Positions 701-41,000 of a stretch of DNA of 64,000 nt are shown piece after piece. This stretch comes from a virus (lineage: Duplodnaviria > Caudoviricetes). Under the pieces are notes generated by a model. The model had not been told where the DNA came from, ran no database searches, and was given only the letters and a program-made list of their open reading frames with translations. The DNA is taken from positions 32,001-96,000 of IMG/VR virus record IMGVR_UViG_2548876794_000003. One strand, written 5' to 3'. The position numbers and the translations under genes are program-made. Each line of letters opens with the position of its first letter. The stretch's first letter is position 1.

Positions 701-714
701 AAAGGAGAAGTAAA

Positions 715-1419: not shown

Positions 1420-1446
1420 ATATTTTTATAATATGATTTTGATTCT

Positions 1447-1743: not shown

Positions 1744-1755
1744 GGCAAGCTCCTC

Positions 1756-1983: not shown

Positions 1984-2012
1984 AATAAAAATCCTCCTAA
2001 GATTAACTGTAG

Positions 2013-2411
2013 TTATATTTTGTAAGTGTAAAAATCTATATAGATGCTAAGATTTTCTTCGACTGACTGCTCTGGAAATACGGACCAATCCATTCTTTTA
2101 ATAGAGAATGATAATCCATATTCCTCTAAGATATAAAGGAGTGAATCCTCAATCATTCGAAATACGCAGCCCGCCGTATCCCTCTTGAATTTTTTAGATA
2201 GTCTATTGAAGTATTCTGTGGGAACGTTGTACAACCTTACGAAGCAGGAAGCTTTAGTGTCCGTTTCATTAACTTCTAACGTTTCCAATACCGCATGTGC
2301 TATACGCAAAGATTGCGAATATACATAGTCGAAAAATTTATCTGGGAATTCAAGTTCGTCTATTAAGTTCATGCGACACAGCCTAAACGCAAAGCTCTTT
2401 GGCTGCGCCAA
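2013..2411 (-). CDS. Hypothetical protein
   Basis: 132-aa ORF in minus-strand run. Confidence 0.6.
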   Translation of the reverse strand: MAQPKSFAFRLCRMNLIDELEFPDKFFDYVYSQSLRIAHAVLETLEVNETDTKASCFVRLYNVPTEYFNRLSKKFKRDTAGCVFRMIEDSLLYILEEYGLSFSIKRMDWSVFPEQSVEENLSIYIDFYTYKI

Positions 2412-2589
2412 TCATCTTTAAGAAGTTGATTTGTGTGCGCACATAATGTGAATTCTCTAGGCCGCCAGCTTCAAACCAGTCGTGCAAGCGTTTGTTGACA
2501 TCTCTTGCAACGTATACCGGTACTTGCATCATCGCATCGTTCAGTTCTTTTAGAATCATTTCGTTATCTGTTGTTGGTTTAATAGTCAT
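2383..2589 (-). CDS. Hypothetical protein
   Basis: 68-aa ORF with GGGGGA RBS. Confidence 0.65.
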   Translation of the reverse strand: MTIKPTTDNEMILKELNDAMMQVPVYVARDVNKRLHDWFEAGGLENSHYVRTQINFLKMIGAAKELCV

Positions 2590-2736
2590 TAGTAAATCCC
2601 CCTGTTTTTTTGGATAGTAAATGCCCCGCCCGTAAAAGGACGAGGCTTTTTATGTTGTAATTATTTTCTACCGAAATCTTCTGGATTCTCGCCCATGGTA
2701 GATGTGTGATCTTTCAAATGGCTCTTTAGTCAAGCT

Positions 2737-3045
2737 TTATTGAAGTCTTTGTTCAATCCATTTGATTTGTTCTTTTTGTGATTCTACAAGCTCTTCATTT
2801 GATTTCAAACACCATGTAGTTAGGCCGAAAGAGATAGCCCAGATGCATGCATAAAAGAAGTCATATGTAAGCAGGTAGTAAATCAATCCAGTAGCATTAT
2901 AGATATTGATAGCCCACGTAAAGCGTCGAAGTAAGCGTGAGAAGCGGATACTTTTCTTCATCTCTTCTAATCTTCGTGAAAGATGCGTTTTGATAAAATC
3001 GTCGGCATTGTCTAGTAAGTGTGAGCCGTTAGTTGATGTTGTCAT
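2737..3045 (-). CDS. Hypothetical membrane protein (likely start MTTSTN)
   Basis: Two hydrophobic segments; AAGGAG upstream of ATG at 3045, overlapping the upstream gene end. Confidence 0.55.
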   Translation of the reverse strand: MTTSTNGSHLLDNADDFIKTHLSRRLEEMKKSIRFSRLLRRFTWAINIYNATGLIYYLLTYDFFYACIWAISFGLTTWCLKSNEELVESQKEQIKWIEQRLQ

Positions 3046-3424
3046 GCAGGTTCTCCTTGTATGGATTGTAGACAGTATATAGTCCTTCGCTGTCCCAATC
3101 ATTAAAATGTTCAATTGTCTCAAAGATATTATTCCTTCTATGCATCTTAGTATTAAAATGACGTTCATTGAAGAAAAGCAATTCATCCACAATATGAGGT
3201 CGTACTACAACAATTCCAAACTTGTTGAATAGAACTCTACCCTTTACGAGAACGTGAGAGTTAACCCACTTTCGATGCGTAAAATAAACATCGTCCCCTT
3301 TAACTAACTTTTTGTCCATAAGGAAATAGCCTGTCAAAATAGATTCCTCTGTATCGAGTGCATCTATTTCAACAGACTTAGCGTTAGTTGGTATTGAACT
3401 ATCCATGTCATGTGTTGTAATCAT
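3029..3424 (-). CDS. Hypothetical protein
   Basis: 131-aa ORF with AAGGAG RBS. Confidence 0.65.
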   Translation of the reverse strand: MITTHDMDSSIPTNAKSVEIDALDTEESILTGYFLMDKKLVKGDDVYFTHRKWVNSHVLVKGRVLFNKFGIVVVRPHIVDELLFFNERHFNTKMHRRNNIFETIEHFNDWDSEGLYTVYNPYKENLHDNIN

Positions 3425-3458
3425 TTTTAAAATGCTCCTTTAGTCGGGTAAAGAGTAG

Positions 3459-4037
3459 TTACTTTTTAACGCAGCTGTCTATGTACGTTTGTTCGTAATC
3501 CAATAAATTTGCGCACTCGTTGAATATCCTTTCATCTTGCGTAGTGATATTGATAGCTGACAATGATTTATAGATGTCATCAAGGATGCGATATATTTTA
3601 TGTTGTATTACTAACGAGTTTTCTCTATTCATATTAGGCAATTCCTTCAAGACCTTTAAACCAGTATTGATAGGTCCTTCATATTGAATGAGAATTTTTT
3701 GGTAGAACGGGTTAGCGAGTACTTCTTGTGATGGATTGATAAAGCTGTATATAAATGCCCCTTTGGCAGAAAGAGCATCTATAAGTTTTCCATCAAAAAA
3801 AGCTTTTTGAACAGGTTCAAAGGATGGATAGTTAGAAAGCTTCATCAACTCTCTGTAACTGTAAATTATTTCTTTGAAAGAATTCAGTACTTCTTCTTCG
3901 GCTTTCTGTACTTCTAACTCGGCAGTGCAAGAAGAGCAGAATATAGCATAAGCACCATAGCCTACAGAGAGGTTGTGATGAACGCCACGAAGTTTGTTGC
4001 AAGACGAGCATTTTCCAAAATACGGTGGTTTGAGCAT
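3459..4037 (-). CDS. Hypothetical protein with N-terminal CxxC..CxxC zinc finger
   Basis: CSSC...CSSC; AAGGAGG RBS. Confidence 0.7.
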   Translation of the reverse strand: MLKPPYFGKCSSCNKLRGVHHNLSVGYGAYAIFCSSCTAELEVQKAEEEVLNSFKEIIYSYRELMKLSNYPSFEPVQKAFFDGKLIDALSAKGAFIYSFINPSQEVLANPFYQKILIQYEGPINTGLKVLKELPNMNRENSLVIQHKIYRILDDIYKSLSAINITTQDERIFNECANLLDYEQTYIDSCVKK

Positions 4038-4086
4038 AATTTACCCTCCTTTCGTATGAATTAGCCAAATGAAATAAGTGAAAAAT

Positions 4087-4578
4087 TCACTTTAACTGCT
4101 CCATTTGTATCACGACTTGTACTAATTCATTATATACAAAATTGACGTTCTTATAAATGTATTTTTGAGAGTTTTTGGTTACTGAGTTTATTATTTTTTG
4201 AGAGTTTTGTCCTAAATAGTCTGCTCGCCTTGCATCTATCGGTGATAAATCTCCAAAATGATCGCAGTCGAATCTGAGTATGCGCTGCATAGACATGCCA
4301 TCCACACTCTTTGAAAAGCTATCCATAGTGAATCCACCATAAACGTTGATGATTTTATCAAGATTTTCCATGTTATAAAAAGCGGAATCTTGTGCGATAC
4401 TAATTTGACCAATTAGAATTCCACGATAATTACGGATGATTTCGCATGGATACCCTTTGATAAGAAAGCTATAATGATCTTCCTCTTGTGTCCATTCCGG
4501 TTCATGGCCATCGTAGTTTACAGCTATAGCTGTAGATACAATGTCTAGGTGATTGGCTAATGTTGATAATAGATCCAT
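4087..4578 (-). CDS. Hypothetical phage protein
   Basis: 163 aa with GG[FL]T..FDCxH motif; GGAGG RBS. Confidence 0.7.
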   Translation of the reverse strand: MDLLSTLANHLDIVSTAIAVNYDGHEPEWTQEEDHYSFLIKGYPCEIIRNYRGILIGQISIAQDSAFYNMENLDKIINVYGGFTMDSFSKSVDGMSMQRILRFDCDHFGDLSPIDARRADYLGQNSQKIINSVTKNSQKYIYKNVNFVYNELVQVVIQMEQLK

Positions 4579-4598
4579 CTCATGTCCTCCCTGTTTTT

Positions 4599-5012
4599 TT
4601 AGAAAATCGGCTCTGATATTGTGCCGTCATCTTGTGCCAAGATGTCGAATTTTAGATATTCTAATGAAGGTTTTATATACGATTTTGGAACAACTGCTAT
4701 GCGATTGCCTTGTGTGTAGATAATCGAAGCGGGTTCCATGCTGTTTGTTTCTGGATTTTTCACTGTCATGTGGTCCAAAACATAATCGGAAAACTTCAAC
4801 AAATCACGCATTCTAACGAATGAAACAATATCTATTAAGCTGTCATCCTTTGTTTTACTGACAATAGCTTGTGTATAGGAGAAGCGTTCGTTTTCGAGAA
4901 GTCGATATAAAAAATCATCCTCACTAAAAATTCCTAAGTCTACAGCTTTGCGCATCCTTGCACCACAAGGACGTTCCCACTCCTTTATACGGTCAACTAC
5001 TTCTACATACAT
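4599..5012 (-). CDS. Hypothetical protein
   Basis: 137-aa ORF, AGGAG RBS. Confidence 0.7.
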   Translation of the reverse strand: MYVEVVDRIKEWERPCGARMRKAVDLGIFSEDDFLYRLLENERFSYTQAIVSKTKDDSLIDIVSFVRMRDLLKFSDYVLDHMTVKNPETNSMEPASIIYTQGNRIAVVPKSYIKPSLEYLKFDILAQDDGTISEPIF

Positions 5013-5035
5013 TATGCGTCACTCCTGTTCGAATA

Positions 5036-5070
5036 AAATAAAAAAGCGCATCCTTTTCGGACGCGCTTTC
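5036..5070 (-). terminator. Rho-independent terminator of par operon
   Basis: GAAAGCGCGTCC-GAAAA-GGATGCGCTTTTTT on minus strand. Confidence 0.7.
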
Positions 5071-5080
5071 TCTGTAAATG

Positions 5081-5506
5081 TTACTTATGGTTTTGAGTTT
5101 CAATTTCGACAAGCATGTCGAAGATAGCTCTTTTGTCTGCAGGTAGCTTTTTCAGACGTTCATCAATCATGTTATTGATTTGTTGGTCAACAGTCGATGC
5201 TGCGCTATCAATTTTTTGTAATGCCATTACACGATGTCGTGTTTCACGAGCTACACGTAAGCTTGTGTAGTCGATAGCTCCTTTAGGAGCGCTAGATTTA
5301 GCTGGTTCACTTTTAGTAGTTTTTTTAGTAGTAGTAGCTTTTGCTACAGGTGCTACAACTTCTTCTACTGCAGGTGTTACTACAGATGCTTGTTCAGCGT
5401 TCTTTCTTGAATTATTTAAACTTGAAGGATCAAATTTTTTAGTTGGTGCAACGTTCACATTGTTTTTTAACGGATCGTTTTTTTTGCTTTTAATTAAGTC
5501 GCTCAT
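5081..5506 (-). CDS. Type Ib partition centromere-binding protein (RHH, ParG/RepC-like)
   Basis: Starts 1 nt after the parA stop; disordered N-terminus, then C-terminal TSLRVARETRHRVMAL...TVDQQINNMID ribbon-helix-helix pattern. Confidence 0.7.
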   Translation of the reverse strand: MSDLIKSKKNDPLKNNVNVAPTKKFDPSSLNNSRKNAEQASVVTPAVEEVVAPVAKATTTKKTTKSEPAKSSAPKGAIDYTSLRVARETRHRVMALQKIDSAASTVDQQINNMIDERLKKLPADKRAIFDMLVEIETQNHK

Positions 5507-5507
5507 A

Positions 5508-6485
5508 TTATTCTACCCCTGCTTTCTCTTCCGCTTCGATACGGTTTAATAATTCATTTGCAATACCAGCGTATAGCGTATGGATTGCTTTATCATGAGT
5601 GTCTGTTTCATGATGTGAAATACCAACACGAGAGTAACGTTTTAATCGTTCGCGGTAAGGAACAACAGAGTTAAATAAATTGTGTTCTCCAAATGTTTCA
5701 GCAGCATCTTGTAGGATGCGTTCATCAACTTTACTGTCTCGTTTTAGAATTACAGGCAAGATACCAATAATATCTGCTTCGGCATCATATTCGTCAATAA
5801 GCTCTTGTAAGTAGCCAACGAAGTCTTTCGCACCATCTAATGACCAGTCTTGTGTTTGGAGAACAACAAGAAGATAGTTCGATGCATAAAGCGCTGAATC
5901 GGTAATGATAGAAAGTGTTGGTGGAACATCAATGAATACAAAATCATATGCTCCGCTTACTCTATCTAATAAATCTTTTAAGTGAGTAACGCGATCAGTG
6001 TAATCTGGGAAAACACCTTCTAAATATCGAGAATAGTAACGGAAATCACTATAGCTTGGAATAATATCTAAGTTGTCAATAATTGGTGTGATGATACTTT
6101 GTAGATCTTGGTTTTGAATGGCCGTCATTAACGTGCCATCGTATGTAATGCTATCTACAGGTTCTTCAACCGATTCCTTAACTTGATTAATTTCTTTAAG
6201 AGATAGTTTTACACGAGATGCGTCGAAGTCATCTTCGCCTTCATGTTTAGCACGTTCAGCAGCAATCTTCGCATCTAAAACTTGGTCAAGTTTATCTTGA
6301 ATCATAAGCTCATGTTCATGTAAGTGACGAGTTTTCATAAGAAGTGAAGTTGCATTTGCTTGCGGATCCTGGTCAACAATTAAAACTCGTTTGCCCATTT
6401 TCGCTAATTCGTAAGCAATCATAACGGTGTTGGTAGTCTTGCCAACGCCACCTTTGATGTTACCGAATGTGATAGTAGTAGTCAT
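5508..6485 (-). CDS. parA: ParA/Soj-family partition ATPase
   Basis: Deviant Walker A KGGVGKTT, IVDQDPQANAT, YDFVFIDVPP. Confidence 0.95.
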   Translation of the reverse strand: MTTTITFGNIKGGVGKTTNTVMIAYELAKMGKRVLIVDQDPQANATSLLMKTRHLHEHELMIQDKLDQVLDAKIAAERAKHEGEDDFDASRVKLSLKEINQVKESVEEPVDSITYDGTLMTAIQNQDLQSIITPIIDNLDIIPSYSDFRYYSRYLEGVFPDYTDRVTHLKDLLDRVSGAYDFVFIDVPPTLSIITDSALYASNYLLVVLQTQDWSLDGAKDFVGYLQELIDEYDAEADIIGILPVILKRDSKVDERILQDAAETFGEHNLFNSVVPYRERLKRYSRVGISHHETDTHDKAIHTLYAGIANELLNRIEAEEKAGVE

Positions 6486-6526
6486 TTTAAAAGCTCCTTT
6501 GAGTGTGTATTGTATTCAGTTTTCAA

Positions 6527-6613
6527 TGTATGCATGTATGCAAGTATGCGATGTTTTTTGTTTCATCGTATGTGAGCATACATATATAATAATATACTCG
6601 CATACTTACTTGC
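6527..6613. promoter_or_regulatory. GCATAC octamer repeats upstream of parA (putative autoregulatory parS)
   Basis: TGTATGCA-TGTATGCA-AGTATGCG tandem plus inverted GTATGTGAGCATAC; same motif as the 16.9-18.2 kb array. Confidence 0.6.
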
Positions 6614-6709
6614 AATAACTACTTAGTAAATAAATGTATAATCGTACTGAAAAGTAGTAAAAACGTTGAAAATCAGAATAACAGATACAACTCTATAGTC
6701 TATATATGA

Positions 6710-7461
6710 CTAACCAATCGTTAGTAACTCATAGGGTTCTTCCGGATAATCTTCTCCCCTACTAGCATGCAAGTCGTTTATTTGCATCGTATTCGGTAGA
6801 TAATTCTGTTTGAAAATATCGACAACCTGCCGCACAAAAGGCTCATACTCTTTATAGGCGTCATGAGCTATCAATACATCTTTATGACAATTACCTTCAA
6901 TTACTTGGAACAAATCGGTGCAAAGAGAGGTTTTAATAATTACCAATGGATAGATGATTCTATCATGAGAGAACCTTAAGTCGAACATAGAAATAGAATT
7001 TTTTTAACTTGAATATAGATAGAACCATATCCTCTAAAAACGTAGCATGAATGGATGCCTGGTTCGACTTCTTTAGAAGAAACAGAGAGCGTTGATATGT
7101 AATCACCTCGACCTTTGATACGATGAAGGTGCTCGTCCAATGAAGTATAAGTAACGACTTCATTGTCCATATCATCATAATAGGAAATGGCAATTGTCAT
7201 GTCGACAGAGCTAATCTTAGGATTGTTTGAATTAGCGTATATCATATTGCTACTCTTCATGTTCTCATTGTATGGCCATTTTATATCTGCAGCGAGCAAT
7301 GCATCTCTTTCTTTTGCTACATCAAGCTGCCGAAGGTGTTTCATTAATGGAAGGAATTCCTCAACTACATGCATACCAAAATTGCACAATGCTATATCTT
7401 GATTCGATTTTGAAGTAAACGGGTTTGGAAGAATTGGTGCATTTGTTGGTGCATTTCCCAC
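6710..7461 (-). CDS. Hypothetical protein (ORFs 6976-7461 and 6710-6988 joined across a frameshift at T7 6999-7005)
   Basis: One extra A gives ...IQVKKNSISMFDLRF... continuous. Confidence 0.6.
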
Positions 7462-7541
7462 TATATAAGTCCCCCCTTCTACTTAGTGAAAATTAAAAAA
7501 CCTCCGCTAAAAAAGCAGAGGTTGAATAGATCGTCATGCTT

Positions 7542-8177
7542 CTATTTCTGAGTGTTCTTTTCATTGAAATAGAGCTGGCATAATGACAGCAGTATATTAA
7601 ATCGTTCATTTTTATGTGTAAGAACACCATGGTTTCGAAGTAGTTTTACCACATACGATTTGAAGTCCCCTACTAATAAATGAGAATATATCGTAGGGAA
7701 TTTTGCGTAGTGATCTAGTTTAGCAAACTCTTGCGAAAAGTAATTGACAGAAGGAGAAACGATTAAATTGTTGAATGTAATATTAAACAATCTCTTATTG
7801 TTTTCCCACTCTGTTGTAGTATAAGGATTTTTGTGCAAGACATTCATACGTTCGATTGTGTGTGAAAACGATAACGAATGTTCTCTAATCAAACTAGCAA
7901 CATAACTATCCGGTCGATGATTTATTCTATCGTTTAAAAGCTCGATTATTGTGAATGGAGAATAATTAATGCGAAGCTTTGGTAAGTTTTGTACAAATTG
8001 TCGCTCTTTTTTATACCACACATGTAGGTCAATTAATTTTTGAACTCCTGAATCAGTAAGGGTTTCTAATGAATCCAACTCTTCGAACGAATTCATGTAA
8101 AATACCTTAGAGATGTCGTCATTTGTCGCCTTTCTAAATAAAGAATTACTCAATAATAAACGCTCCTTGTATAGCAT
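7542..8177 (-). CDS. Hypothetical protein
   Basis: 211-aa ORF; start uncertain. Confidence 0.55.
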   Translation of the reverse strand: MLYKERLLLSNSLFRKATNDDISKVFYMNSFEELDSLETLTDSGVQKLIDLHVWYKKERQFVQNLPKLRINYSPFTIIELLNDRINHRPDSYVASLIREHSLSFSHTIERMNVLHKNPYTTTEWENNKRLFNITFNNLIVSPSVNYFSQEFAKLDHYAKFPTIYSHLLVGDFKSYVVKLLRNHGVLTHKNERFNILLSLCQLYFNEKNTQK

Positions 8178-12163: not shown

Positions 12164-13438
12164 CTAAATAATTAATTGCAATCGTTCGTTTACTTCGCTG
12201 ATTACTTTCTTCTCTACTGGGTGTGCATCTATATGTACACCTTTATTATTTTCTTTACGCTCTTTTAAAAATTGCTCATTCGACTTGGCAATCTTTTCAC
12301 GCTTCTCCTTTTCAACGGTGTTCAATTTTACATTAAAAGGCGGGTTAGTCAACAATCTATCAAACGGAATTTCACGAGCTTGTGCTATAACGATTTCACG
12401 TTGAACATCTTCTGGTATGTTCTCCCATGGTTCGTACAAGTAATCATCGTATTGGAATATTTCTCGTTTTGTTAAATCAATTGCCCCAACATATATATCA
12501 ACTACTTGTGACTTTTCTTTAAAGATGTCCACCGGCGCATAGTATTCACCAAGTAATGAGTCCCCGTTGTATATGCGCGTGTTCGTTTTAAACTCATAGT
12601 ATTTGTTGATTGTTAATGTTAATCGGTCCACATGAATACCAACGACAGGTCTAGGCACATATAAAGCCCATGGTTTGTAAATGAAGCACTGAATAGCGGC
12701 CACTTTTGTCATTGTTAGACTTAGATCGGCGCCAACAATATTTAAAGATTCTGATGGAAGAATCATAGCTGCTCCACCGACACATGGTTCGAATTGAGAA
12801 GCGGTTCGATCTTGCATGACATCTTCTTTTGAAGTCATTATGTGCATCAACTTCGTAACTTGTATTGGTGTAGGAAAATAATCCAAATGACCACTTTGAC
12901 CGTTTGCTGAAACAAATTCTGATAGATAATCTGCTGGATAAAGATAGAACAGGTCCAATACGAACTCACGATACAATTCCTCGTAGGCCTTATCGCTTAG
13001 CCTAGGCTTTTCAAACCATGCAATGCCTAAGCTATAACCAATCCATTCAATGAACTCGCCAACATAATGGCCATCTTTGCGAACAATCTCCATACAATGT
13101 TCTAGCATTTTTTTGCATGCTTCATGTTCTTTGTTCTCGAATAGAGTGTGCTGTTTAGGGAAATCAAGAACATTCCCTTCCCCTTTTTCGCAAGCAAGGA
13201 GCCAGTTGTACCAGCTTCCTGTCATAAGAGTATCCATCGTTAAAGCCAATCCACGCATCCATCCAAAGAAATGAGCATTTTTCGCAGAGCTTGGAGGGCA
13301 TGTATATAAAGGATGATTTTGAATTTCTGAAATACGAACCATTGCTTGTAGTTGTTTTTCTCTCGGCATACTTTTAACATATTCCGCCGCCTTCATTTTT
13401 TCTTGCTCCATTAGTTTTTGATACGCAGTCTTTGCCAT
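12164..13438 (-). CDS. Orphan N6-adenine DNA methyltransferase-like protein
   Basis: DYFPTP, motif I-like FEPCVGGAAM, GDSL, motif IV TNPPFN. Confidence 0.75.
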   Translation of the reverse strand: MAKTAYQKLMEQEKMKAAEYVKSMPREKQLQAMVRISEIQNHPLYTCPPSSAKNAHFFGWMRGLALTMDTLMTGSWYNWLLACEKGEGNVLDFPKQHTLFENKEHEACKKMLEHCMEIVRKDGHYVGEFIEWIGYSLGIAWFEKPRLSDKAYEELYREFVLDLFYLYPADYLSEFVSANGQSGHLDYFPTPIQVTKLMHIMTSKEDVMQDRTASQFEPCVGGAAMILPSESLNIVGADLSLTMTKVAAIQCFIYKPWALYVPRPVVGIHVDRLTLTINKYYEFKTNTRIYNGDSLLGEYYAPVDIFKEKSQVVDIYVGAIDLTKREIFQYDDYLYEPWENIPEDVQREIVIAQAREIPFDRLLTNPPFNVKLNTVEKEKREKIAKSNEQFLKERKENNKGVHIDAHPVEKKVISEVNERLQLII

Positions 13439-24986: not shown

Positions 24987-25607
24987 TTAAACTTTTCTTA
25001 AAGAATCAATAAGGTTTGTAATATCGTTAACTGTTAATGCCTTATCTCCTCCAACTACTTCGTTCATATAATTGAACGCACGATGCGTAACGAATGTTTT
25101 TGCTGCTCCATCCACTTCTACTGTTACAACACTGTTCAGATAGCTCATACGATCCATCTCACGAATAAGCGCGATTGCCACCGGTCTCACATCATCTTGA
25201 TTTGAACCAGCAGAGATTCTACATCTCCAGTTAAGTCCTTCTCTATGGAACGATGCTTTCGCTTCATAAGAAACGTCTGGTTCATGCGTAGCATACTTTT
25301 CTTCTAACACATTGAACTGCTCAACAAGTTGGCTGCCTAATGCGACAATTTGGTCGAATAGCTCTGGGATTTCACTAAGATCTAGTTCGACACCATACTC
25401 TGCGTGGTCCACTTGAATTTGACCTGCTTGGCCATCGTTATCGTCCATTGTGATTGTTGCTCCGTTTAGTTCTGTATTTACTTGTAGTGCTGTACCTTGT
25501 TTCTCAACGATCGTGCGAATGCTATTGATTGTGCCTACTGGTTGGAATACGTCGTTTGCTCCAGCGAATAATACTTTGATACCTGCGATTGATGTAGTTG
25601 TTTTCAT
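24987..25607 (-). CDS. Hypothetical protein (likely start MKTTTS)
   Basis: GGAGG RBS before ATG 25607. Confidence 0.65.
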   Translation of the reverse strand: MKTTTSIAGIKVLFAGANDVFQPVGTINSIRTIVEKQGTALQVNTELNGATITMDDNDGQAGQIQVDHAEYGVELDLSEIPELFDQIVALGSQLVEQFNVLEEKYATHEPDVSYEAKASFHREGLNWRCRISAGSNQDDVRPVAIALIREMDRMSYLNSVVTVEVDGAAKTFVTHRAFNYMNEVVGGDKALTVNDITNLIDSLRKV

Positions 25608-26668: not shown

Positions 26669-26733
26669 TGGTTTGTCATCATCAGATGCAGGGGAACCAC
26701 CTACTGCATGACTGAGTTGCCCCAGTTTCGACC
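26669..26733 (-). ncRNA. Hammerhead ribozyme (type II), cleavage after C26710
   Basis: GGUC-GAAA-CUGGG gcaa CUCAG-UC^AUGCAG(uagguGGUUccc)CUGCAU-CUGAUGA-U-GAC-aAACCA: intact core, stems I-III, and a loop I/3'-tail pseudoknot UGGUU:AACCA; one extra U before stem II. Confidence 0.85.
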
Positions 26734-26734
26734 A

Positions 26735-26878
26735 TTATTTAAATAGCCCGATGATACGGCGGATTGCACGTTTGGCCATCTTGAAGCGGAACACGTTCCA
26801 CATGATGACGAATGGCATTGCCACAACTCCTAGCATGATTAATTGTTTTTCTTCGCTGTTCATTGGTTGGTTGTTCAT
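26735..26878 (-). CDS. 47-aa single-TM peptide (below ORF-track cutoff)
   Basis: MNNQPMNSEEKQLIMLGVVAMPFVIMWNVFRFKMAKRAIRRIIGLFK; GGAGG RBS. Confidence 0.6.
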   Translation of the reverse strand: MNNQPMNSEEKQLIMLGVVAMPFVIMWNVFRFKMAKRAIRRIIGLFK

Positions 26879-26889
26879 TATATATACCT

Positions 26890-27255
26890 CCAGTCGTCGA
26901 GGGCTCTAGTCCCTAAAAACGACATTCATTTCAATTAGTGCGTTCATCATGGTATGTCGGAGACACACATACGAAAGCACGACAAAGAACCCTAACTTCC
27001 TCGAAGTAGGGCACCGCAGCGTAACACTCCCGCAAGAGTTGTTATTTAAAGTGTGCATTGCACACATCAGCCACATATGAAGTATGGGGAGCTTCGTGCT
27101 TGGAGCCATCGTGGTTTTCGATGGCGACGCGAAGCGGTAACACACCTCTAATGCTTGGGACAAATGTGCTGTGTCCATTAAAGTAACAATCATGTGTGCA
27201 TACGAATGCGATTGTAACCTTAATGCACATAGGGGAGATCCCCTACGCACAATAC
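26890..27255 (-). ncRNA. Candidate structured RNA (about 10 consecutive/nested hairpins)
   Basis: e.g. GUGCGUAGGGG/CCCCUAUGUGC, GCCAUCG/CGAUGGC, AGCACGA/UCGUGCU, GUGUGC/GCACAC; G-U pairs favour the minus strand. Confidence 0.5.
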
Positions 27256-27261
27256 TACTTA

Positions 27262-29541
27262 TTAGAATCCGAATAAATCGTCGTCATCTTCATCTTCATC
27301 ATCTAACTCAGCTAGTAACGCTGCTTTACGATCTTCTAAAGTTTCTGCTGCTTCTACAGTTTCTTCTTCGTTATCAGTTGCATCGTCACCAAATAAATCA
27401 TCATTACTGTCATCAGAAACTTCATCTTCGTCATCTGTAGCGAATAGTTCTTCATCGTCTGCAGAGATTTCGTCAGCTTCTTTTGTTTCTTTCTTGCTAG
27501 ATTTGAAGCGGTCTTTAATCATTGCTTTGTTTTCATCTGATTCAGCGATGATGTCGATGATGTTTTCTTCTGCATCACCTACAACTTGAATCACGATACC
27601 AACGTTTGCGTAACCTTTGTTTTTAGAGAATACTGCTTGTACTAAACGAACTTTCTTCATTGAAGCTGGTTCAGTTGTACCATTGAATACGCCATTACGT
27701 TGTTCATCGTTTGATACATTTGAGCTGTATGTGCTAACAGGTAACACTAATGCTGCTTTATTTTCGTCAGCACTTACATCCCAGATAGCAGGGATTGTTT
27801 GGCGATTCTTGTTATCCATGTTTGTTGTATAAAGCTCTTTGCCAGCTTTGAATGTAGCTAATAATTTAGCAACGTTTTCTGTAGCGTATTTAGTGATGTT
27901 GCCTTCTTCATCTTGTGTGTACATTGAATCTTCTTTGAAGTAAGAGCTATCACCTTGTAAGAATAAGATACCTTCTGGTGCTGTTTCGATAGAGCGTTCA
28001 ATGATTTCTTGTGCTTTATCTTGAATGTTACGTTTTGCTACGATACGGAATTTCTGTTCGCCATCTTCATCTAATTCAATTGATTCTTGAATTTCGAATA
28101 CATATTCACCTTCTGGTAAGAAGTTTACGAAGTATGGGTTGAAGCCTTTTTCGTTGAATGTCACAACGTCACCATTTTGGTATGGTAGTTCCTCAACGTT
28201 TGGCGCGATGAATAGTTCATCTTCTGTTACGAATGAAGCTTTGTAGCCTTCAAGGTCAGTTGATTCGTTGTGGATCATTTCAGCGTATAGTAATTGTTCC
28301 TCTGCGAATAGGGCACTGAAAGCAGATGACATTGTGTTTGATTTGTTATCTTCACCATAACGAAGGTCGCCAATTTGACGAGTGATTAATGCTAATTTCG
28401 CTGCATCTACACCAAGTTGAGTTGCTTTTAAACGTACGGCAGCTTTCATGAATTCAGTTAATGGTTTGTATTTTTTAGATACACGAGCACGTACTTCCAT
28501 TGCTTCGTCAGTATCAGAATCAACTAATTGTAATTCATATTTTGTTTCATCGCGTTGAGCACGTTCAATTGCATCGAATTGAGTTAATGTTGATTGTACA
28601 TATGAAGTGAACTCTGGGTTCTCACTTACTACTGCTGCAGCTTCGATAACCTCTGATTTAATGAATGTTGCTTCACGAGCTGTTTCATCAAGGTCGATTA
28701 ATGCATTGTAGATTTCAGTAAGGCTGTATTTCTTGAACTGTTGTTTCAAGTCAGTGAAGATAGCTTTACCTTTTTTATCGTAGTCTAGTTCATCTCGGTA
28801 GAATAATGATACGCGGCTACCAGCTGTTTCTGCATTATCACTTGCGATAGTTAAGAACTGCTCAGTCATTTTTTCTTTGTATTCCGCTTTCATTTCATCA
28901 GTGAATAGCAGTTGTACTTTTACTGAACCTTTGTTAATAGATGCTACTTTATATGCTTTTGATGGGCTTGCGATTACTGATACTTCGTAAGCTTTTTTGA
29001 ATGCGTCAATGTGACGTTGCATATCAATATCGAATACTAAGTCAACATCTGCTAATAATTCGATGATTGTTTTGTCTGTTGCTGATTTGAAGTCGAAGTG
29101 TTCTAACGTTTTCAAGATAGCTTCACGATCTGCGACGTTAAGTTCTGCTTGCTCTACGATTACACCAGAAGCATTAACGAATGATGTTTTCGTACGTTTG
29201 ATAGCTTTGTATTTAGTGATTGTTGGTACAGTGTTATCTTTGTTGAAGATTTCGCCAAGAACACGACGAGTTTCTTCTGTTGCTACAGTGTATGCTTCTT
29301 CTGTGATGCCACGTAATGCTGCGCCGAATTTTAATGTTTCTGCTGCTGCTTTAAGTGCTTGTGACGCGTTTGCTACGATACCGATACCAGCAACTTTAGC
29401 TGATGTTTGTTTAACCATTGTTAATGCTAAGTTCTCTGCAGCGTAACCGAATTTTGATGCACGTTGAGCTTGAACTTCTTTGATGTTTTTAACGAATGAT
29501 GTAGCTGCGAATTGGTTGAATTTGTTGTTTGTGAATGTCAT
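27262..29541 (-). CDS. Putative C-terminal subunit of split YonO/RdRP-type RNA polymerase, with acidic tail
   Basis: N-terminal GIGIVANASQAL and QRHIDAFKK resemble the post-catalytic 'lG.i.n' and 'avD.pK' motifs of cellular RdRP/YonO; AGGAGG RBS. Confidence 0.6.
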   Translation of the reverse strand: MTFTNNKFNQFAATSFVKNIKEVQAQRASKFGYAAENLALTMVKQTSAKVAGIGIVANASQALKAAAETLKFGAALRGITEEAYTVATEETRRVLGEIFNKDNTVPTITKYKAIKRTKTSFVNASGVIVEQAELNVADREAILKTLEHFDFKSATDKTIIELLADVDLVFDIDMQRHIDAFKKAYEVSVIASPSKAYKVASINKGSVKVQLLFTDEMKAEYKEKMTEQFLTIASDNAETAGSRVSLFYRDELDYDKKGKAIFTDLKQQFKKYSLTEIYNALIDLDETAREATFIKSEVIEAAAVVSENPEFTSYVQSTLTQFDAIERAQRDETKYELQLVDSDTDEAMEVRARVSKKYKPLTEFMKAAVRLKATQLGVDAAKLALITRQIGDLRYGEDNKSNTMSSAFSALFAEEQLLYAEMIHNESTDLEGYKASFVTEDELFIAPNVEELPYQNGDVVTFNEKGFNPYFVNFLPEGEYVFEIQESIELDEDGEQKFRIVAKRNIQDKAQEIIERSIETAPEGILFLQGDSSYFKEDSMYTQDEEGNITKYATENVAKLLATFKAGKELYTTNMDNKNRQTIPAIWDVSADENKAALVLPVSTYSSNVSNDEQRNGVFNGTTEPASMKKVRLVQAVFSKNKGYANVGIVIQVVGDAEENIIDIIAESDENKAMIKDRFKSSKKETKEADEISADDEELFATDDEDEVSDDSNDDLFGDDATDNEEETVEAAETLEDRKAALLAELDDEDEDDDDLFGF

Positions 29542-29700
29542 GATAAATTTCCTCCTATGCTAAACCGTTTTGATTTAGCTCCATAAATAATTTTTTAGTT
29601 TAATGTTTGTTTTATAAATAATAAAAAGCCACACAACTGACAGTCATGCGGCAGGTCCATAATACTGAGTGACAATGAAATGATGTTGCTAAACTTACTA

Positions 29701-32208
29701 TTAAAGTAAATCTGTAGTGCTGTGAGCTTCTGCTTGTGTTGCTGATAATGCTTCGACAATACGTTGGTCAAATACTAATGTAAAACCATCCATATCCCAG
29801 TCAGAACCAGACATGATTAAGTTCAACGTTGGGTGGAATGGAAGCATAACAATACCATCTGATAATGCTTTCATGTACGTTTTAGCGCCTTTCATTAATT
29901 CTTTAACAACTGCTACTGGTAACGTTTTGCCGTCTTTGTTTTTACGACCAAGTAATGCTGCTGCTTTATCTTCGATGCGTGATAAGATTTCATCACGAGA
30001 TACAACGTTTGCAATATGGAAGTCACGAGCACCTGGTTTTGGTGAACGATAGAATACTAATTGCATTGTGATATTTCCTTCTGCATCTACTAGGTCATGC
30101 TTACGAGCATAGCTTTCTGCAGCTGGTGAATACACTTCATCTGTTCCTAATACACCTAGACGGTAAGCCGCTTCTGCGTTACGAAGGTCCTCGAATGCTT
30201 GACGAACAACACGTTTCTTCATTACACCTTTACGAATTTGCATATATGAAGGTTTGATTCCCTCTACTGATTCGTATTTAGCTGTTTGACTTTCAATACC
30301 AGCTTCTACTAAATCGTTGTAATCTTTTAATGCTTTTAAGTGAGCCGCTTCGTGTTGTGTTAAACCTTCTTCATCTGTGTTGAAGTCGATGAATTTAAAA
30401 TTAGCAATATCATCTGGTGTGTTGAATAGTAGAGCAGGTAAGTCGTATAAACCAGACGCATAAGTACCAGCTACAACGTCACGAGATTTGCTATCAAGGT
30501 CACGATTTGTAACGTTGATTACATCTCCTAAAATAGAGTTAACAATAGATGATTCTTTTTCGAATGCGAAACGAGGAGCAGCACTACGCATAATACCTGT
30601 GTAGTAAAGGCTATCTCCTGTTAATTGTGAAGCAGATACTTTAGGATCACGCAATGCTTGATTGCCTTCTTCATCTGTTTCTGTACCGATTGCCGCACTT
30701 AATGCACGACGAGCTGTTTCAGCGCCTAATGTTTCGATTAATAATGGAGCTTGGTCTTGGTTTTCTACAGCCTTAGTTAATGCTTCTTTTTTATCCATAC
30801 CTTCTGCTACGAATTGTTTTGCTAAATCTGCAACACGCATATCTTTCATGTTTTGTACTGCATCTTCTGTTAATAGAGATTGTCCCATTTGACCAGAGTG
30901 ATTCGTTGTTTGTTTAGCAGGGTGAGAAAATGTCATAACTGGCATTGTTGTTTTTGTACCTTCACCGTATGAAACAGGAACTTTCATTTCATCTAGTGTT
31001 GCGATGTAAGTAGGGATAGCTGTTTTATCTACTACTTTTTGAATGATAACTGCGTCATATCCTTTGAAGTATGATTTGATACCATTGAATGCTTTCTTTT
31101 CATTAGCATCTGTTGCACGAGCTTCCATCCATTCTTCACGAGTGATGTATTTAATTTTGTATCCTTGGAATACTAAAGCGTGGATGTATGCTGCAATTGT
31201 TCTAGGCATGAATAGTACGCTTGCTACTTTGTTTACGCCATCGAAACGAGCTTGCATTAATTCACCCACAAAGTGTTGAGGTTTGAACATTGCGCTACCA
31301 CCAATTGAAATTGAAGCATTGTTGATAGATTTCGCTACATATTCAGCACTTACGATTTCGCCACCATCTTTCAGTACGCCATAACGTTTTGTTAAATCAA
31401 TCATTGGAGAAACATCATCTCCATTGAATTTCGCTAAATCTACACCAGCTGTGTGTGTTTGAGATTCACGAGTTGCGATATTGATTAAATCTGCTTTGCT
31501 TGCTTCACGATCTTTGAATTGATCAACGAAGTATTGATTCATGCCGTTTGTTGCAGCATTTGTGATTTCGCGGAATTTTGCTTTACCTTCTTCTGTATCT
31601 GGTAAGGCAATCATTAATAAGCGTTTTACTTTCGCCATACCTGGAGTGTATTGGAATCCGTATAAACGAAGCGCGCCTAATTTATTGAATTCTTCAATTG
31701 TTAATGAAGTGTTGTTTAATAGTGAACGATATGTGTTACGAGAACGAGTGTATAATTCCACTGAACCGTTATCTGCGAATACTACATATAAGCCAGTTTC
31801 TAAAGCGTCTAATGAAGATTTGTCGAATTTAACTTCTAATAAACCGTTAAGGAAGTTCTCAACTTTCATTTCACCAAGATCTGTCATGATTGTTGTTTCT
31901 CTTTGTAATGCTTGACCTTCTAAGCCTTCTACCATTTCGATATAGCGATCTGTAGAAACACCTGTTTTTGTAGATGCTACAGAAGTGCTTACTTGGTGTA
32001 CGTTTTCAAGAACCACCTTGCGAATTGTTACGCCGTCTTTTACTGCGCGGAATACTTCTTCAAGGTACGCTTTGATTTTGTTACCTTTAGCTTTTGGTAA
32101 CAGGTTTACTGCTACAGTTGATAGTTCTGATTTAACGTAGTTTACTTCTGGTAATGCTAATACTGTTGTTGCTGCTTCTGTTACTGTTGCTTGTGTAGAT
32201 GTTTTCAT
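29701..32208 (-). CDS. Two-barrel (DPBB) RNA polymerase, YonO/cellular RdRP-like, catalytic subunit
   Basis: Ordered motifs KDGGEIVS, MQARFDGVNK, NHSGQMGQSL, GLYD, GVLGTDEV, VFYRSP..D, GIVMLP, SGSDWDMDGFTLVFD (DxDxD); start at ATG 32208 after AGGAG. Confidence 0.85.
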   Translation of the reverse strand: MKTSTQATVTEAATTVLALPEVNYVKSELSTVAVNLLPKAKGNKIKAYLEEVFRAVKDGVTIRKVVLENVHQVSTSVASTKTGVSTDRYIEMVEGLEGQALQRETTIMTDLGEMKVENFLNGLLEVKFDKSSLDALETGLYVVFADNGSVELYTRSRNTYRSLLNNTSLTIEEFNKLGALRLYGFQYTPGMAKVKRLLMIALPDTEEGKAKFREITNAATNGMNQYFVDQFKDREASKADLINIATRESQTHTAGVDLAKFNGDDVSPMIDLTKRYGVLKDGGEIVSAEYVAKSINNASISIGGSAMFKPQHFVGELMQARFDGVNKVASVLFMPRTIAAYIHALVFQGYKIKYITREEWMEARATDANEKKAFNGIKSYFKGYDAVIIQKVVDKTAIPTYIATLDEMKVPVSYGEGTKTTMPVMTFSHPAKQTTNHSGQMGQSLLTEDAVQNMKDMRVADLAKQFVAEGMDKKEALTKAVENQDQAPLLIETLGAETARRALSAAIGTETDEEGNQALRDPKVSASQLTGDSLYYTGIMRSAAPRFAFEKESSIVNSILGDVINVTNRDLDSKSRDVVAGTYASGLYDLPALLFNTPDDIANFKFIDFNTDEEGLTQHEAAHLKALKDYNDLVEAGIESQTAKYESVEGIKPSYMQIRKGVMKKRVVRQAFEDLRNAEAAYRLGVLGTDEVYSPAAESYARKHDLVDAEGNITMQLVFYRSPKPGARDFHIANVVSRDEILSRIEDKAAALLGRKNKDGKTLPVAVVKELMKGAKTYMKALSDGIVMLPFHPTLNLIMSGSDWDMDGFTLVFDQRIVEALSATQAEAHSTTDLL

Positions 32209-32493
32209 GATATAATTTCTCCTGTGTAGATGCTTGCCTTGTTGCAAGTCATCTCTGACGCATGCTCAATATGCGTAGATGCTACCTATATGGTTAGTCA
32301 TCGTTTCTCTTATGTAAGTAGTGGTGTTATAACCAGTTACTTACGTTGTAGTCTTCCAAACTACAACTTGTGAGCCTTTTATAAAGACTCGCCATTACAG
32401 AAAAGAGTCCAATCTTTCCTATAATGAATCGTAATAAGTACGTCCAATACTTATTACATAGACGGGTGTTTCCTCACTCGTCTTTTTTTTTAT

Positions 32494-32558
32494 TGCCTTC
32501 CATCTGCGTTTGTACGGGCTTTGGACCGTTATACATTTGTATAGCCGCATTAAAAGCA
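32494..32558 (-). ncRNA. Twister ribozyme (P1 type), cleavage U32552^A32551
   Basis: UGCUUUU^AAUGCGGCUAUAC-aaau-GUAUA-ACGG-UCCAAAGC-CCGU-acaaac-GCA-GAUG-GAAGGCA: P1, P2 (UGC/GCA), P3, P4, pseudoknots GGCU/AGCC and UC/GA. Confidence 0.85.
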
Positions 32559-32585
32559 GGGCTCTATATAGAACCCCTTATATGA

Positions 32586-32819
32586 CTACATGCTCATATA
32601 GTCATTCTTAGCGTATGCAAAGTGTTGTTCAGCAGGGCAGTGGAATAATAACCATTGGTTCTTGCCATCTTTAGATACTGAGATGACACTAGCTACTATG
32701 TCCTTCCCTTGCTTAATCAACTTACATACGACATGATTACCAGCTAATTTGTGTCTGCTGATAATGTTCACCTGTGCTTCTGTGTATTCCTCTTTGCTTA
32801 AATCTACTGACTTTACCAT
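32586..32819 (-). CDS. Hypothetical protein
   Basis: 77 aa, GGGAG RBS. Confidence 0.65.
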   Translation of the reverse strand: MVKSVDLSKEEYTEAQVNIISRHKLAGNHVVCKLIKQGKDIVASVISVSKDGKNQWLLFHCPAEQHFAYAKNDYMSM

Positions 32820-32844
32820 AATGTATCTCTCCCATTCCTATGTG

Positions 32845-33342
32845 TTATTTGTTGTTATGCATGAATAATGGTTTGCGTTTTAATTGATTAATGTAACGTT
32901 CGTTATATGTGATATAGCGATTGCGTAAACGATCTGGAATATAGCGAAGTCCTATACGATACGCTCGCTCTTCTAATTTCAATTGAATCTTTCCTAATGT
33001 TGGCTTGTGCTTATGAACAACCATTGCTGCCATATTGGCTAATTGGTAACGGCATGCTGGATCATTGGCATGTCCTAGTTCATGTGCCATTGCGATAAGG
33101 TAGTTATCTACAATTTCTTTAACGCTAATGACAGCATCATTGCCCATCAAATCAAATAAAAGACGATCACATACATTCATGTAAATGTGACCGCCTTCGA
33201 ATAAACCGATTGCTTTGTAATTGAATAAAGAATCATCTTCTGTAAAGACTACATCTATATCCTTTAATTGCTCTGCGTATACGTTAGTTACATCACGTTG
33301 GATAGCTAAACGCAGGTTGTTCATAATGAATTGCTTGTTCAT
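32845..33342 (-). CDS. HExxH metallopeptidase-like protein (ImmA/IrrE-like)
   Basis: AMAHELGHA...LEERAY; likely start MNKQF after GGGAG. Confidence 0.6.
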   Translation of the reverse strand: MNKQFIMNNLRLAIQRDVTNVYAEQLKDIDVVFTEDDSLFNYKAIGLFEGGHIYMNVCDRLLFDLMGNDAVISVKEIVDNYLIAMAHELGHANDPACRYQLANMAAMVVHKHKPTLGKIQLKLEERAYRIGLRYIPDRLRNRYITYNERYINQLKRKPLFMHNNK

Positions 33343-33682
33343 CTTTAGTCGCTCCCTTTTTATCTTGGGCATAGGTATGCTGTTTCTAGGCAGATTTTGA
33401 TACGTTGTTTAGAAAAGCGAAATGGCATACCCGGGGCTCCAAAATATGTGTTTTTGAGTGTATATATATAATGGGTAGCCACAGGATTTTTTCATTTTTT
33501 CGTTTCCGCATAGGGTTTTTACAATCCGTATATATTTTTTATGTAGTCTTAGTTTCGTTTTAAATTGTCAGACTATTAAAGTCTTTAATGAGGCCTTAAG
33601 AAAAAATTGCGCCATAAGAAAGTTTGTGCAAAAATAGTAGCTGCCTTTCGAGGTACTAATACAAATGAGGGGAGAGATTTTA

Positions 33683-38004: not shown

Positions 38005-41000
38005 ATGCCGAAGAATAAATTATCCGCTATCGAAGTAGAACGATTTAAAGAGATTATGGCAAACCCTGTAATGTGGGCTCGTGCATTCATTCGCACCTTC
38101 AATCCGAAGACGAAAAAGCATGAACCTTGGGTAGCCCGCTGGTATCAAGCAGAAATCTTACTAGATGAATCGGTCAAAAAGGTTGCTAGGTGTGGACGCC
38201 GTACGGGTAAACATTTGCTCTTCATTTGTGAATTGCTGGAAGGTCCAACTCCCTTGGAAGAATCAGCAGCCATGTCCTATAGAAATAGGAAGGGTTCAGA
38301 GACTACGAGCGCAAATGTTTTAATACAACACGAGAGAGGTTATGCCACATGAAATTTGTAGCAGAACGAAAAATCGAAAATCGCGTACTATCAGTAAACA
38401 TTAAATTTGATAGCTACGGTGAAGGCGACTTAACAGATGAACAGGAAAAAGCGTTGGTTAGCGCATTCGGCAATCCTGTCATCTCAGTAGGTGGCGAGTT
38501 TAAAGCGAAGTTTGACGAGAAAGGTCAATTCGTAGAAGATCCAGAAGCAATCGGTGAAGAAGTATCGTTCATTATCGTTAATAAGACGGCAGAGCTTGGC
38601 GAGAATTTCGTAGCGTCATATTCTATTGGGTTAGATAAAGCAGCTGCATACATTAATGAAAAATCTCTATTAAAAGAGGATTACTTACAAGCCGTAGCTC
38701 GCTGTGAGCTTTTCGAAAAAACTATCCAAGATCGCGCGGTTGCCGCAGCTGATAAGTTACAAGCAAAATCAACTGCATTCACAACTGGCTACCCACGCGA
38801 TTTCTTTGCATAAGGAGGACGGATCATGCAACTAAAATACACAAGTAGTATTCGTAAACGCATTATCTGCTTAAATGTAGAGACGACAAACTTCACTACA
38901 AACGAGCGAATCGCCTTAGAAGAATTAGGCGAGCCAGTCATTGAAATGGAGAAAATGTTCAAAGGTAAATATCCTGTGCAATTTTCTAAAACAATTCGTA
39001 CTGGCTTGAAGTTAGCTATCCGCTTCGATGGTCGTGAAAATATTGAAGAAGCATCGCAAGCCGCAAATGAATTTGTAGAGGAATTAGGCGAACTAATCCG
39101 TACAAAAATGAGCGACCTTATGGAAACATACGATGATGTCAATTTTATTTTTGACCGTAAGAATGGATTAACTACCCTATAGATTGTATTAAAAAAGATA
39201 TAGTCCGCCCCTGTTTTTAACAGGGTAGCGAAAACAGAGACCATGTGCGTAAATGGTCTTTACAAGGGGTCCACCCAACCAAACCAACGTATTCTGTATG
39301 TTACGCCATACGAGACGCAAGTACGTTTAATCTTTATGCGTCTAAACGAAATGATTGACGGTAGCCCGCTTCTACAAGAGCAAGTTGCTCGTCGTATCAA
39401 AAACCCATTCATGATTGAATTTAAAAATGGCTCTGCTATCATGGGCTTCACGACAGGTGCTTCGTCTGGTACAGGCGGTGCTTCTATTCGTGGCCAACGT
39501 GCCGATTATATTCACATGGATGAAGTGGATTAACCATATAGTCCACTATAAATAGGGTGAATTGCTGGAAGGTTTGGTGTAAAATCTGCATCAGAATAAT
39601 CAGCAGCCATGCTGTTAGGAGGTTTTATTATGGGAGAACTTATTTTCCTAAATGAACATAATGAAGTAAAAGAAGCGATTGAACACGACAAACAGGACAT
39701 GTTGAATATGCTAGACACAATCCAAAAAGTAGTAGAGGATGGCGAAGCTGTCTCTTTATACATTGGATGTGCGCTAACAGACAATACAAGTATAAGCTGG
39801 TCATCTGGACGTTTTAATTATAACCAACGCGCCAGACTAATTAGTGAATTACATGATGAACAATGTGCTCATGCTTTAGATTTACTTGATGACTAACGGA
39901 GGGTTCAGAGACTATTAATAGCGCCCTACATAGATGATATAGTCCGAAGTGAAAACGTATATGACCGAAGCTGACTTTGATACCGTAACAACAATTGCCG
40001 CTGAACGTAGCGACATCGGTATCTTCTTGTCATCTACTCCAACAGGTGCTCGCTCTAAGTTCTATCAAGCGTGTACCGATAAATCAATGGGCTTCACTGA
40101 ACATTTCCATCCATCAAGCCATAACCCGAACTGGGATGCCACGATGGAAGCTCAATTCAGAGCTCAACTTACGCCGTCTGGTTACACGCATGAAATCGAA
40201 GCAGATTTCGGCGCGCAAGATACCGGTGTATTCAACAAAGATAAGGTCGATAAAGCAATGTCATTCCAAAACTATTACTACAATCCGCTATCTGTTATCC
40301 AGTTGGATCGCGTGAAGCGTGAAGCGGAGAATGGGACCCCGACACCAATTAACAGAGTGTACGATGGTATACCTGTGCCACGAAATACATTCCGTACGAT
40401 GGGCGTCGACTGGGATAAATACCAAGCATCAAGTAGTATATTGATAATGGACTATGACATTGAATCGAAAAAATTCATTGTTGTTAAACGTATTGAAGTA
40501 CCGAAAGCGGAGTATTCATACGATGCAGCAGTTAATTTGATTGTTGAACTAAACGAAATATATAATCCGACATGGATCTACTGTGACCGCGGATCAGGCG
40601 AGTATCAAATAGAACGTCTACATATTATTGGGGAAGAACGTCCAGAGACGGGCCTTAAACATAAAGTGAAGGGCTGGCAGTTTGCTAACAAAATTGACGT
40701 AATGGACCCAGTTACAAAAGAGATGGTTAAAGAGCCAATGAAACCATTCATGGTTAACCAATTGATTATGGCCTTCGAGCGTGAGCAATTGATTCTTTCT
40801 CCATTCGATGAAATCTTACATAAGCAATTAATCGACTATGAAGTAGTGCGCCAGCAACAAAATGGTGCGCCAATTTTCACTTCTGAAAATGAACACTTTG
40901 TCGATACATTAGGTTTGGCTTTCCTTGCATTCGTACTCGAATTTACGGAGCTTACCAATACAATCAAAAAAGTTCGATATGAAATGGCGATGTCATCTAT

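Follow-up and report, generated by a model that had tools for sequence, protein, structure and literature searches.

Ribozyme motifs flanking a split polymerase gene pair

We analysed a 64,000-nucleotide (nt) stretch of viral DNA, called the window below, which comprises bases 32001-96000 of the 178,960-bp IMG/VR virus record IMGVR_UViG_2548876794_000003, estimated to be 78% complete. Two consecutive genes on the minus strand of the window, A and B, encode a polymerase that is split into two proteins. A twister ribozyme motif lies upstream of gene A, and a type II hammerhead candidate lies downstream of gene B. As shown in Table 1, the unit between the two motifs also contains a long leader, a trailer and the gene of a protein of 47 amino acids (aa). 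Both ribozyme motifs are on the coding strand and occupy gaps just past stop codons. A first-pass annotation had described a twister 5' and a hammerhead 3' of the polymerase genes, and this observation was confirmed by a match to the Rfam model RF03160 for the former, and by a descriptor search and a reading of the core and pseudoknot for the latter. The twister had been placed about 340 nt before the polymerase start. The distance was corrected to 288 nt ahead of the ATG of gene A at 32208, and the motif lies 29 nt past the 77-aa gene.

Table 1. Features of the polymerase locus, in window coordinates, listed in the direction of the minus strand
Feature	Position	Strand	Basis or remark
Two small upstream genes	32586-33372	-	Same minus-strand unit as the polymerase; list of open reading frames (ORFs)
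175-aa gene	32845-33372	-	ORF list; called in close relatives
77-aa gene	32586-32819	-	ORF list; called in close relatives
8-bp hairpin directly before the twister	32558-32577	-	Terminator-like scan and sequence
Twister ribozyme, type P1	32496-32556	-	RF03160, full model length, 55.5 bits
287-nt leader with about nine near-perfect hairpins	32209-32495	-	Minimum free energy (MFE)
Polymerase gene A, 835 aa from the ATG at 32208	29701-32208	-	Translation, hhalign, model of a fused relative
11-bp hairpin, then UUUUUAUUAU, in the A-B gap	29618-29652	-	Terminator-like scan; hairpin at 29652-29628
Polymerase gene B, 759 aa, acidic tail	27262-29541	-	Always after A in relatives
383-nt structured non-coding trailer	26879-27261	-	MFE
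47-aa gene with GGAGG ribosome-binding site	26735-26878	-	Called in relatives L005, L028 and L033
Type II hammerhead candidate	26669-26732	-	Sequence reading and descriptor; after the 47-aa gene
Hammerhead stem II, 3' strand	26732-26730	-	
Hammerhead GAAA	26729-26726	-	
Hammerhead stem III	26725-26712	-	
Hammerhead U26711 and C26710, then the cut	26711-26710	-	
Hammerhead stem I	26709-26686	-	
Hammerhead CUGAUGA	26685-26679	-	
Hammerhead extra U	26678	-	
Hammerhead stem II, 5' strand, GAC	26677-26675	-	
Hammerhead pseudoknot tail AACCA	26673-26669	-	Pairs with loop I UGGUU, 26699-26695

The predicted twister cut is between U32552 and A32551, a U-A step, and the predicted hammerhead cut is between C26710 and A26709. 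Cleavage at both sites would release a product of 5842 nt. Both cut positions (32551 and 26710) and the product length had been given in the first-pass annotation, and our recomputed values agreed with them. Searches of the 179-kb record for pistol, type I and type III hammerhead, hatchet and twister-sister ribozymes gave nothing credible, so the twister and the hammerhead are the only self-cleaving motifs found in the record. A pistol-like match of 16.5 bits inside a 254-aa ORF (window 25059-25116) was rejected as noise.

The twister motif upstream of gene A

The E-value of the twister match was 1e-10 when 6.7 kb were searched, 1e-09 for the whole window and 6.8e-13 for the genome. The cmscan alignment spanned positions 1-68 of the model, and none of its pairs was marked as non-canonical. 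Stems P1, P2 and P4, the optional P3 and the conserved loop nucleotides were aligned over the full model. The T1 pseudoknot reads CCA/UGG here and CCC/GGG in the consensus, where the CCC belongs to the P4 loop and the GGG to the 3' internal loop. Both sides are thus changed while the pairing is kept. The T2 pseudoknot GC/GC is retained. The T1 and T2 partners in the alignment were assigned according to published twister structures. The motif therefore resembles Twister-P1 in its full-length match, its four stems, both pseudoknots and the U-A cleavage site, whereas it differs in a short P3, in a T1 A-U pair where the consensus has C-G, and in a score of 55.5 bits, which is below the Rfam gathering score of 67.2 for RF03160. 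Because of this score, Rfam returns no match for the window at its default settings. By the matches described here, the twister motif is genuine and statistically secure.

The hairpin directly before the twister starts 8 nt after the stop codon of the 77-aa gene, and the length of its G-run differs among close relatives. After twister cleavage, the upstream RNA would end in a hairpin followed by GCUUUU and a cyclic phosphate, which would resemble a terminator end.

The hammerhead candidate downstream of gene B

The hammerhead candidate was read in the order GUC / GAAA / CUGGG-GCAA-CUCAG / UC, then the cut / AUGCAG-UAGGUGGUUCCC-CUGCAU / CUGAUGA / U / GAC / A / AACCA. Stem III is 5 bp long with a GCAA loop of the GNRA type, stem I is 6 bp long with a loop of 12 nt, and stem II consists of the 3 bp GAC/GUC. 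Stems I and III are capped and stem II is open, which is the type II topology. The core is complete, with C3 U4 G5 A6 N7 G8 A9, G12 A13 A14, the A15.1-U16.1 pair, and C17 as H17. A 5-bp pseudoknot joins UGGUU in loop I to the tail AACCA, which begins one nucleotide past stem II. A type II descriptor (GAAA, hairpin, UH, hairpin, CUGANGA) was run on both strands of the 179-kb genome and matched a single site, the hammerhead. At the stem lengths of this site, the chance expectation from 200 Markov shuffles was 0.015 per genome, with stem II and the pseudoknot not counted.

Three features of the site could be explained if only the twister were active, the hammerhead-like sequence being decayed or fortuitous and the 3' end of the message being set by a terminator or by RNases, so that there would be no true bracket. 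No Rfam hammerhead family matched a 201-nt slice around the site even at E<=10, and RF02276 had no match there when run on the whole genome. The site carries an additional U after A9, ahead of G10.1, which is its one departure from the type II form, and its stem II is just 3 bp long. In the minimum-energy fold, the CUGAUGA box is paired with the end of the 47-aa gene and thus sequestered. The Rfam negative carries little weight, however, because the same searches also failed to report a textbook type II hammerhead at 7807-7862 of L009, a relative described below. The low chance expectation likewise speaks against a fortuitous match, even before stem II and the pseudoknot are considered. In type II hammerheads, a pseudoknot between loop I and the 3' tail together with stems II of only 1-2 bp is the norm (Perreault et al., PMC3088659), and in most members loop I pairs over at least 4 bp, as a pseudoknot, with the nucleotides directly 3' of stem II (PMC3088659). 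An extra residue after A9 also occurs in the CChMVd plus hammerhead, in which a U at this place raised trans-cleavage 3-4 fold (PMC3705267). Compared with the type II family (RF02276), the site shares the open stem II, the capped stems I and III, the intact CUGAUGA, GAAA and GUC core with the cut after GUC, and the 5-bp pseudoknot to the nucleotides 3' of a short stem II, whereas the extra U and the lack of any score from the Rfam model set it apart. On this evidence, 26732-26669 is very probably a type II hammerhead, and we consider it unlikely that the twister acts alone. Of the Rfam models named in the first-pass annotation, twister-P1 thus gave a positive result, albeit under its cut-off, and the hammerhead models gave none.

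Ribozymes and terminators in relatives

Twelve loci of close relatives, 98-99% identical, were aligned, and motifs were counted over the loci that cover them. The twister is identical in 11 of these loci, with differing flanks, and the hammerhead is identical in 10. No intermediate relative holds the hammerhead motif. Identical motifs with differing flanks weakly suggest a constraint on the motifs themselves.

Two distant relatives, L008 and L009, share 25% identity with the window in protein A and are syntenic with it on both sides. In these relatives, ribozymes recur in the corresponding slots. The textbook type II hammerhead of L009 lies between a 108-aa gene and gene A and has a stem III of at least 6 bp, a stem I of 7 bp, GA/UC as stem II, and a pseudoknot between UUAACCA and UGGUUGG. 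Gene B of L008 and L009 is followed by a 750-nt structured trailer, a terminator-like hairpin, a pistol ribozyme, a 193-aa gene and a type III hammerhead. The pistol scored 61.5 bits, above its cut-off, and lies about 750 nt past gene B. By these matches, the polymerase pair of L008/L009 is bracketed too, by other ribozyme classes: a type II hammerhead at the 5' side and a pistol at the 3' side. A 22-nt direct repeat, AAAACCGCACGCCTTTRGTTCT, occurs in the non-coding trailer of L009 between gene B and the pistol (12499-12520 and 12729-12750, 230 nt apart). In L008, an extra 139-aa ORF lies just upstream of the pistol (12882-13301) and is absent from the otherwise near-identical L009.

In another relative, L010, clean intrinsic terminators occupy both slots, which suggests that the slots are transcript boundaries. 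The upstream region of L007 is structured over 484 nt, and no ribozyme could be recognised in it. A decayed twister was considered there from the shared UAAUGCGG..CUAUAC and was rejected, as the alignment was unconvincing and Rfam found nothing. Among 15 more distant relatives, type III hammerheads were found in L014, where two small genes separate the motif from the fused polymerase gene downstream of it, and in L013, where the motif comes after the fused polymerase and one further gene. A weak twister-like match of 23.6 bits was found in L019 (locus 6166-6230, minus strand), and in G012 a pistol lies far from the polymerase. No ribozyme was detected next to the polymerase in most of the 15. 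The expectation that relatives keep ribozymes at both flanks thus held for L008 and L009, and failed for L010, with its terminators, for L007 and for most of the distant relatives. Because most relatives have no detectable ribozyme beside the polymerase, the bracket is, by these searches, dispensable: ribozymes recur around the polymerase gene and are not obligatory. Under translation table 11, L019 has very few ORFs of at least 80 aa over 8 kb (1-8000), while the other relatives are densely coding. This low ORF density may reflect an alternative genetic code or poor assembly.

Structured spacers and the hairpin between genes A and B

The spacers had been described as packed with hairpins, and folding bore this out. 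The leader had an MFE of -93.3 kcal/mol compared to -52.7 kcal/mol for shuffled sequences (z = -8.65), and the trailer -136 kcal/mol compared to -106 kcal/mol (z = -5.09). The first hairpin of the leader (32460-32483), together with an A9 run, reads on the plus strand like a perfect intrinsic terminator (hairpin and T9). This putative plus-strand terminator (32460-32492) lies directly 3' of the twister and is antisense to the polymerase genes, and there is no gene there. The A-run beside the hairpin is 7 to 9 long among close relatives.

The gap between genes A and B is 159 nt, and the terminator-like hairpin noted there in the first-pass annotation is present at 29652-29628. A strong hairpin with a U-run was found in the A-B gap of all four split-polymerase lineages. 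The hairpin of the window and that of L007 (3322-3351) agree in 28 of 30 nt, though their A proteins are 27% identical, and its sequence is unique in the genome. It is probably a leaky terminator or a regulatory site. Since the hairpin and U-run are conserved, a good part of transcription may end after gene A, and the 5.8-kb species would therefore be the read-through fraction. The hairpin also looks sequence-specific, as an attenuator or a protein-binding site might be, and not like a generic terminator. The motif ATTAAAC after the hairpin was considered as a recurrent phage promoter and dropped, as it was not enriched in intergenic DNA.

The split polymerase

Gene A ends 28 residues after the catalytic loop SGSDWDMDG. 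The aspartates of the DxDxD loop (D803, D805 and D807 of A) are invariant in the family, and the loop reads DFDID in relatives with a fused polymerase gene. Word-indexed protein searches with A returned the query alone. An exhaustive HMMER search found just three other clusters, each consisting of an A gene and then a B gene. No related locus was found in viral or metagenome contigs with A as a single sequence or as a profile. The Pfam family of RNA-dependent RNA polymerases (RdRP), PF05183, had no match in A, B or the genome. Its match in the L016 homologue was sub-threshold (E 0.024), and the Atlas features of A point to phage clusters bearing PF05183. Searches of PDB sequences with profiles of A1 and A4 returned nothing. 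The AlphaFold model of gene A, built from an alignment of 4 sequences, had a predicted local distance difference test (pLDDT) score of 36.

More distant relatives were reached via a conserved 246-aa neighbour gene. In these relatives, the polymerase is encoded in one ORF of 1380-1670 aa, in which the loop reads DFDID. With hhalign, A aligned to the N-terminal half of the fused family through the catalytic loop, with a probability of 99.4% and an E-value of 7e-22. Protein B matched the fused profile weakly and in the expected register (B 152-191 to fused 915-953, E 0.021). The fused protein of L014, modelled from a deeper alignment, had a pLDDT of 70-95 over the barrel region (residues 13-390 of the modelled segment). 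In a Foldseek search with this model, QDE-1 was the top match (E 2e-8), RDR2 followed at about 1e-4, and crAss-like gp66 and other two-barrel polymerases ranked lower. These results indicate that A is, as modelled through its fused relative, the N-terminal half of a two-barrel polymerase of the QDE-1/RdRP type, which is divided after the DWDMD loop, and that B is probably the C-terminal half. The reading of the genes as an RdRP/YonO-like split polymerase was thus borne out. In common with the cellular RdRPs QDE-1 and RDR and with the YonO-type single-chain polymerases, the family has the DxDxD loop followed by a pattern like the RdRP signature, and the predicted structure of the fused relative matches QDE-1 and RDR2 best. 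Unlike them, the protein of the window is encoded in two genes, with the split 28 residues past the catalytic loop, and the window proteins have no match to PF05183 and very few sequence relatives.

The fused polymerase ORFs, all on the minus strand, were located at 2631-7640 of L013, 1689-6014 of L014, 135-5153 of L015 and 69-4208 of L020. In L018, three consecutive ORFs of 600-700 aa occupy 1483-7507. The fused protein of L014 begins with a Rho_N/SAP-like motif (E 7e-8).

Setting and neighbouring genes

Identical proteins were also found on an NCBI contig of 248,626 bp, and the relatives are phages of about 245 kb. The source is therefore an uncultured jumbo phage. It is present in sequencing data sets that include SRR26830840-44 and ERZ4239746. 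The minus strand carries all genes of the window from about 2 kb to 33.4 kb, and a plus-strand module begins at 33665. The 175-aa and 77-aa genes upstream of the twister are 25 nt apart. The 47-aa product is probably a small membrane protein because of its hydrophobic core, LIMLGVVAMPFVIMWNVF. No counterpart of its gene was seen in L009. A blastn search against deposited phages gave no match, and Pfam and PHROGs returned nothing for eight proteins of the region. Partial matches to group I introns were observed in the neighbouring plus-strand module (window 38223-38317, plus strand, 34 bits) and in the relatives (L008 2105-2201 and L009 2092-2188, both on the minus strand, 47 bits).

Probable processing of the polymerase transcript

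Judged by its motifs, the locus clearly exemplifies a kind of phage gene block, flanked by ribozymes, that has been known from 2011 onwards. Such flanking is established and was read as processing into gene-length mRNAs (Perreault et al. 2011, PMC3088659). As in those blocks, two self-cleaving ribozymes lie between genes on the coding strand and bracket a short block, the type II hammerhead has a pseudoknot between loop I and the 3' tail, and relatives carry differing ribozyme classes at equivalent slots (PMC3088659). The locus differs from those blocks in its cargo, the phage's own split QDE-1-like polymerase of about 5.8 kb, in its long hairpin-array leader and trailer, and in its combination of a twister and a hammerhead, with a hammerhead and a pistol in the relative of 25% identity. 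Specific to this locus are its polymerase cargo, its hairpin-array leader and trailer, and the exchange of one ribozyme class for another, or of a ribozyme for a terminator, at orthologous boundaries.

The ribozymes are probably boundary elements that process the transcript and set the ends of the polymerase mRNA. Transcription of the minus-strand cluster would start from the divergent region near 33.4-33.6 kb and extend across the two small genes, both polymerase genes and the gene of the 47-aa protein into the region beyond. The twister would cut itself during synthesis and separate the mRNA of the small genes, which would carry a terminal hairpin with a 2',3'-cyclic phosphate. A 5'-OH would remain on the polymerase mRNA, which would start with the folded twister and the 287-nt hairpin array. 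Some transcripts would stop at the conserved hairpin and U-run after gene A, and others would continue through gene B and the 47-aa gene. Read-through transcripts would be cut by the type II hammerhead, leaving the stem III hairpin and a cyclic phosphate as their 3' end. In this way, the polymerase message may gain its own ends and hence a stability and translation that do not depend on the neighbouring genes.

Several points weigh against this processing. The twister score is under the gathering score, and the hammerhead has its extra U, its short stem II, its negative Rfam results and a minimum-energy fold in which the core is occupied. That both motifs are perfectly conserved counts for little, given the 98-99% identity of the close relatives. 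The structured upstream region of L007 and the flanks of most of the 15 distant relatives are without a recognisable ribozyme, and the bracket can thus be dispensed with. In addition, a promoter between the twister and gene A, or between genes A and B, would change the transcript map.

The first-pass annotation had also raised the possibility of a circular RNA. RtcB ligases act on 5'-OH and 2',3'-cyclic phosphate ends, and ribozymes of the twister and hammerhead classes leave such ends. A host ligase of the RtcB type could thus join the excised 5842-nt RNA end to end into a circular polymerase mRNA, and circular products were raised as a possibility for ribozyme-flanked phage genes by Perreault et al. 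(PMC3088659). However, the ribozymes at the two sides are of different classes, and because of this they cannot religate each other's ends. In the 179-kb record, with its completeness of 78%, no ligase family of the RtcB, Rnl2 or T4 Rnl1 type was found. Complementarity between the first and last 120 nt of the RNA does not exceed that between these ends and internal windows, and no helix bridging the ends was found. Further points against a circle are the conserved terminator-like hairpin between A and B and the ordinary terminators that L010 has in the same slots. We regard such a circle as highly improbable. If true, it would be the first case in nature of a DNA phage making a protein-coding circular RNA.

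It had further been proposed that the excised RNA serves as a template for the polymerase it encodes, in an RNA-copying cycle. The fold of the enzyme, which is that of the cellular RdRPs QDE-1 and RDR2, speaks for such a cycle. However, most relatives have the same gene without ribozymes, and the sequence holds nothing that points to an antisense product. Moreover, YonO, the characterised phage member of the lineage, is a DNA-dependent RNA polymerase, as Forrest et al. reportedly found in 2017. We give this cycle almost no credence. The combined scheme, in which host RtcB would close the released RNA, about 5.8 kb long, to a circle that serves as polymerase mRNA and that, more remotely, the polymerase would copy, seems to us extremely improbable. 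The first-pass interpretation is thus partly supported: simple mRNA processing, which it had named as the conservative explanation, is the best fit, while neither circularity nor self-templating gained anything from the sequence or the relatives.

What purpose self-cleaving ribozymes serve in phage operons has been asked since 2011. In the phages compared here, the same polymerase gene pair is delimited in four ways: by a twister and a hammerhead, by a hammerhead and a pistol, by terminators, and by nothing detectable. This pattern argues for interchangeable transcript-boundary devices and not for sequence-specific regulators. The Rfam type II hammerhead model, as run in this study, misses phage examples that look real. 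The locus would offer a defined system for asking whether 5'-OH and cyclic-phosphate ends alter the lifetime or the timing of an mRNA.

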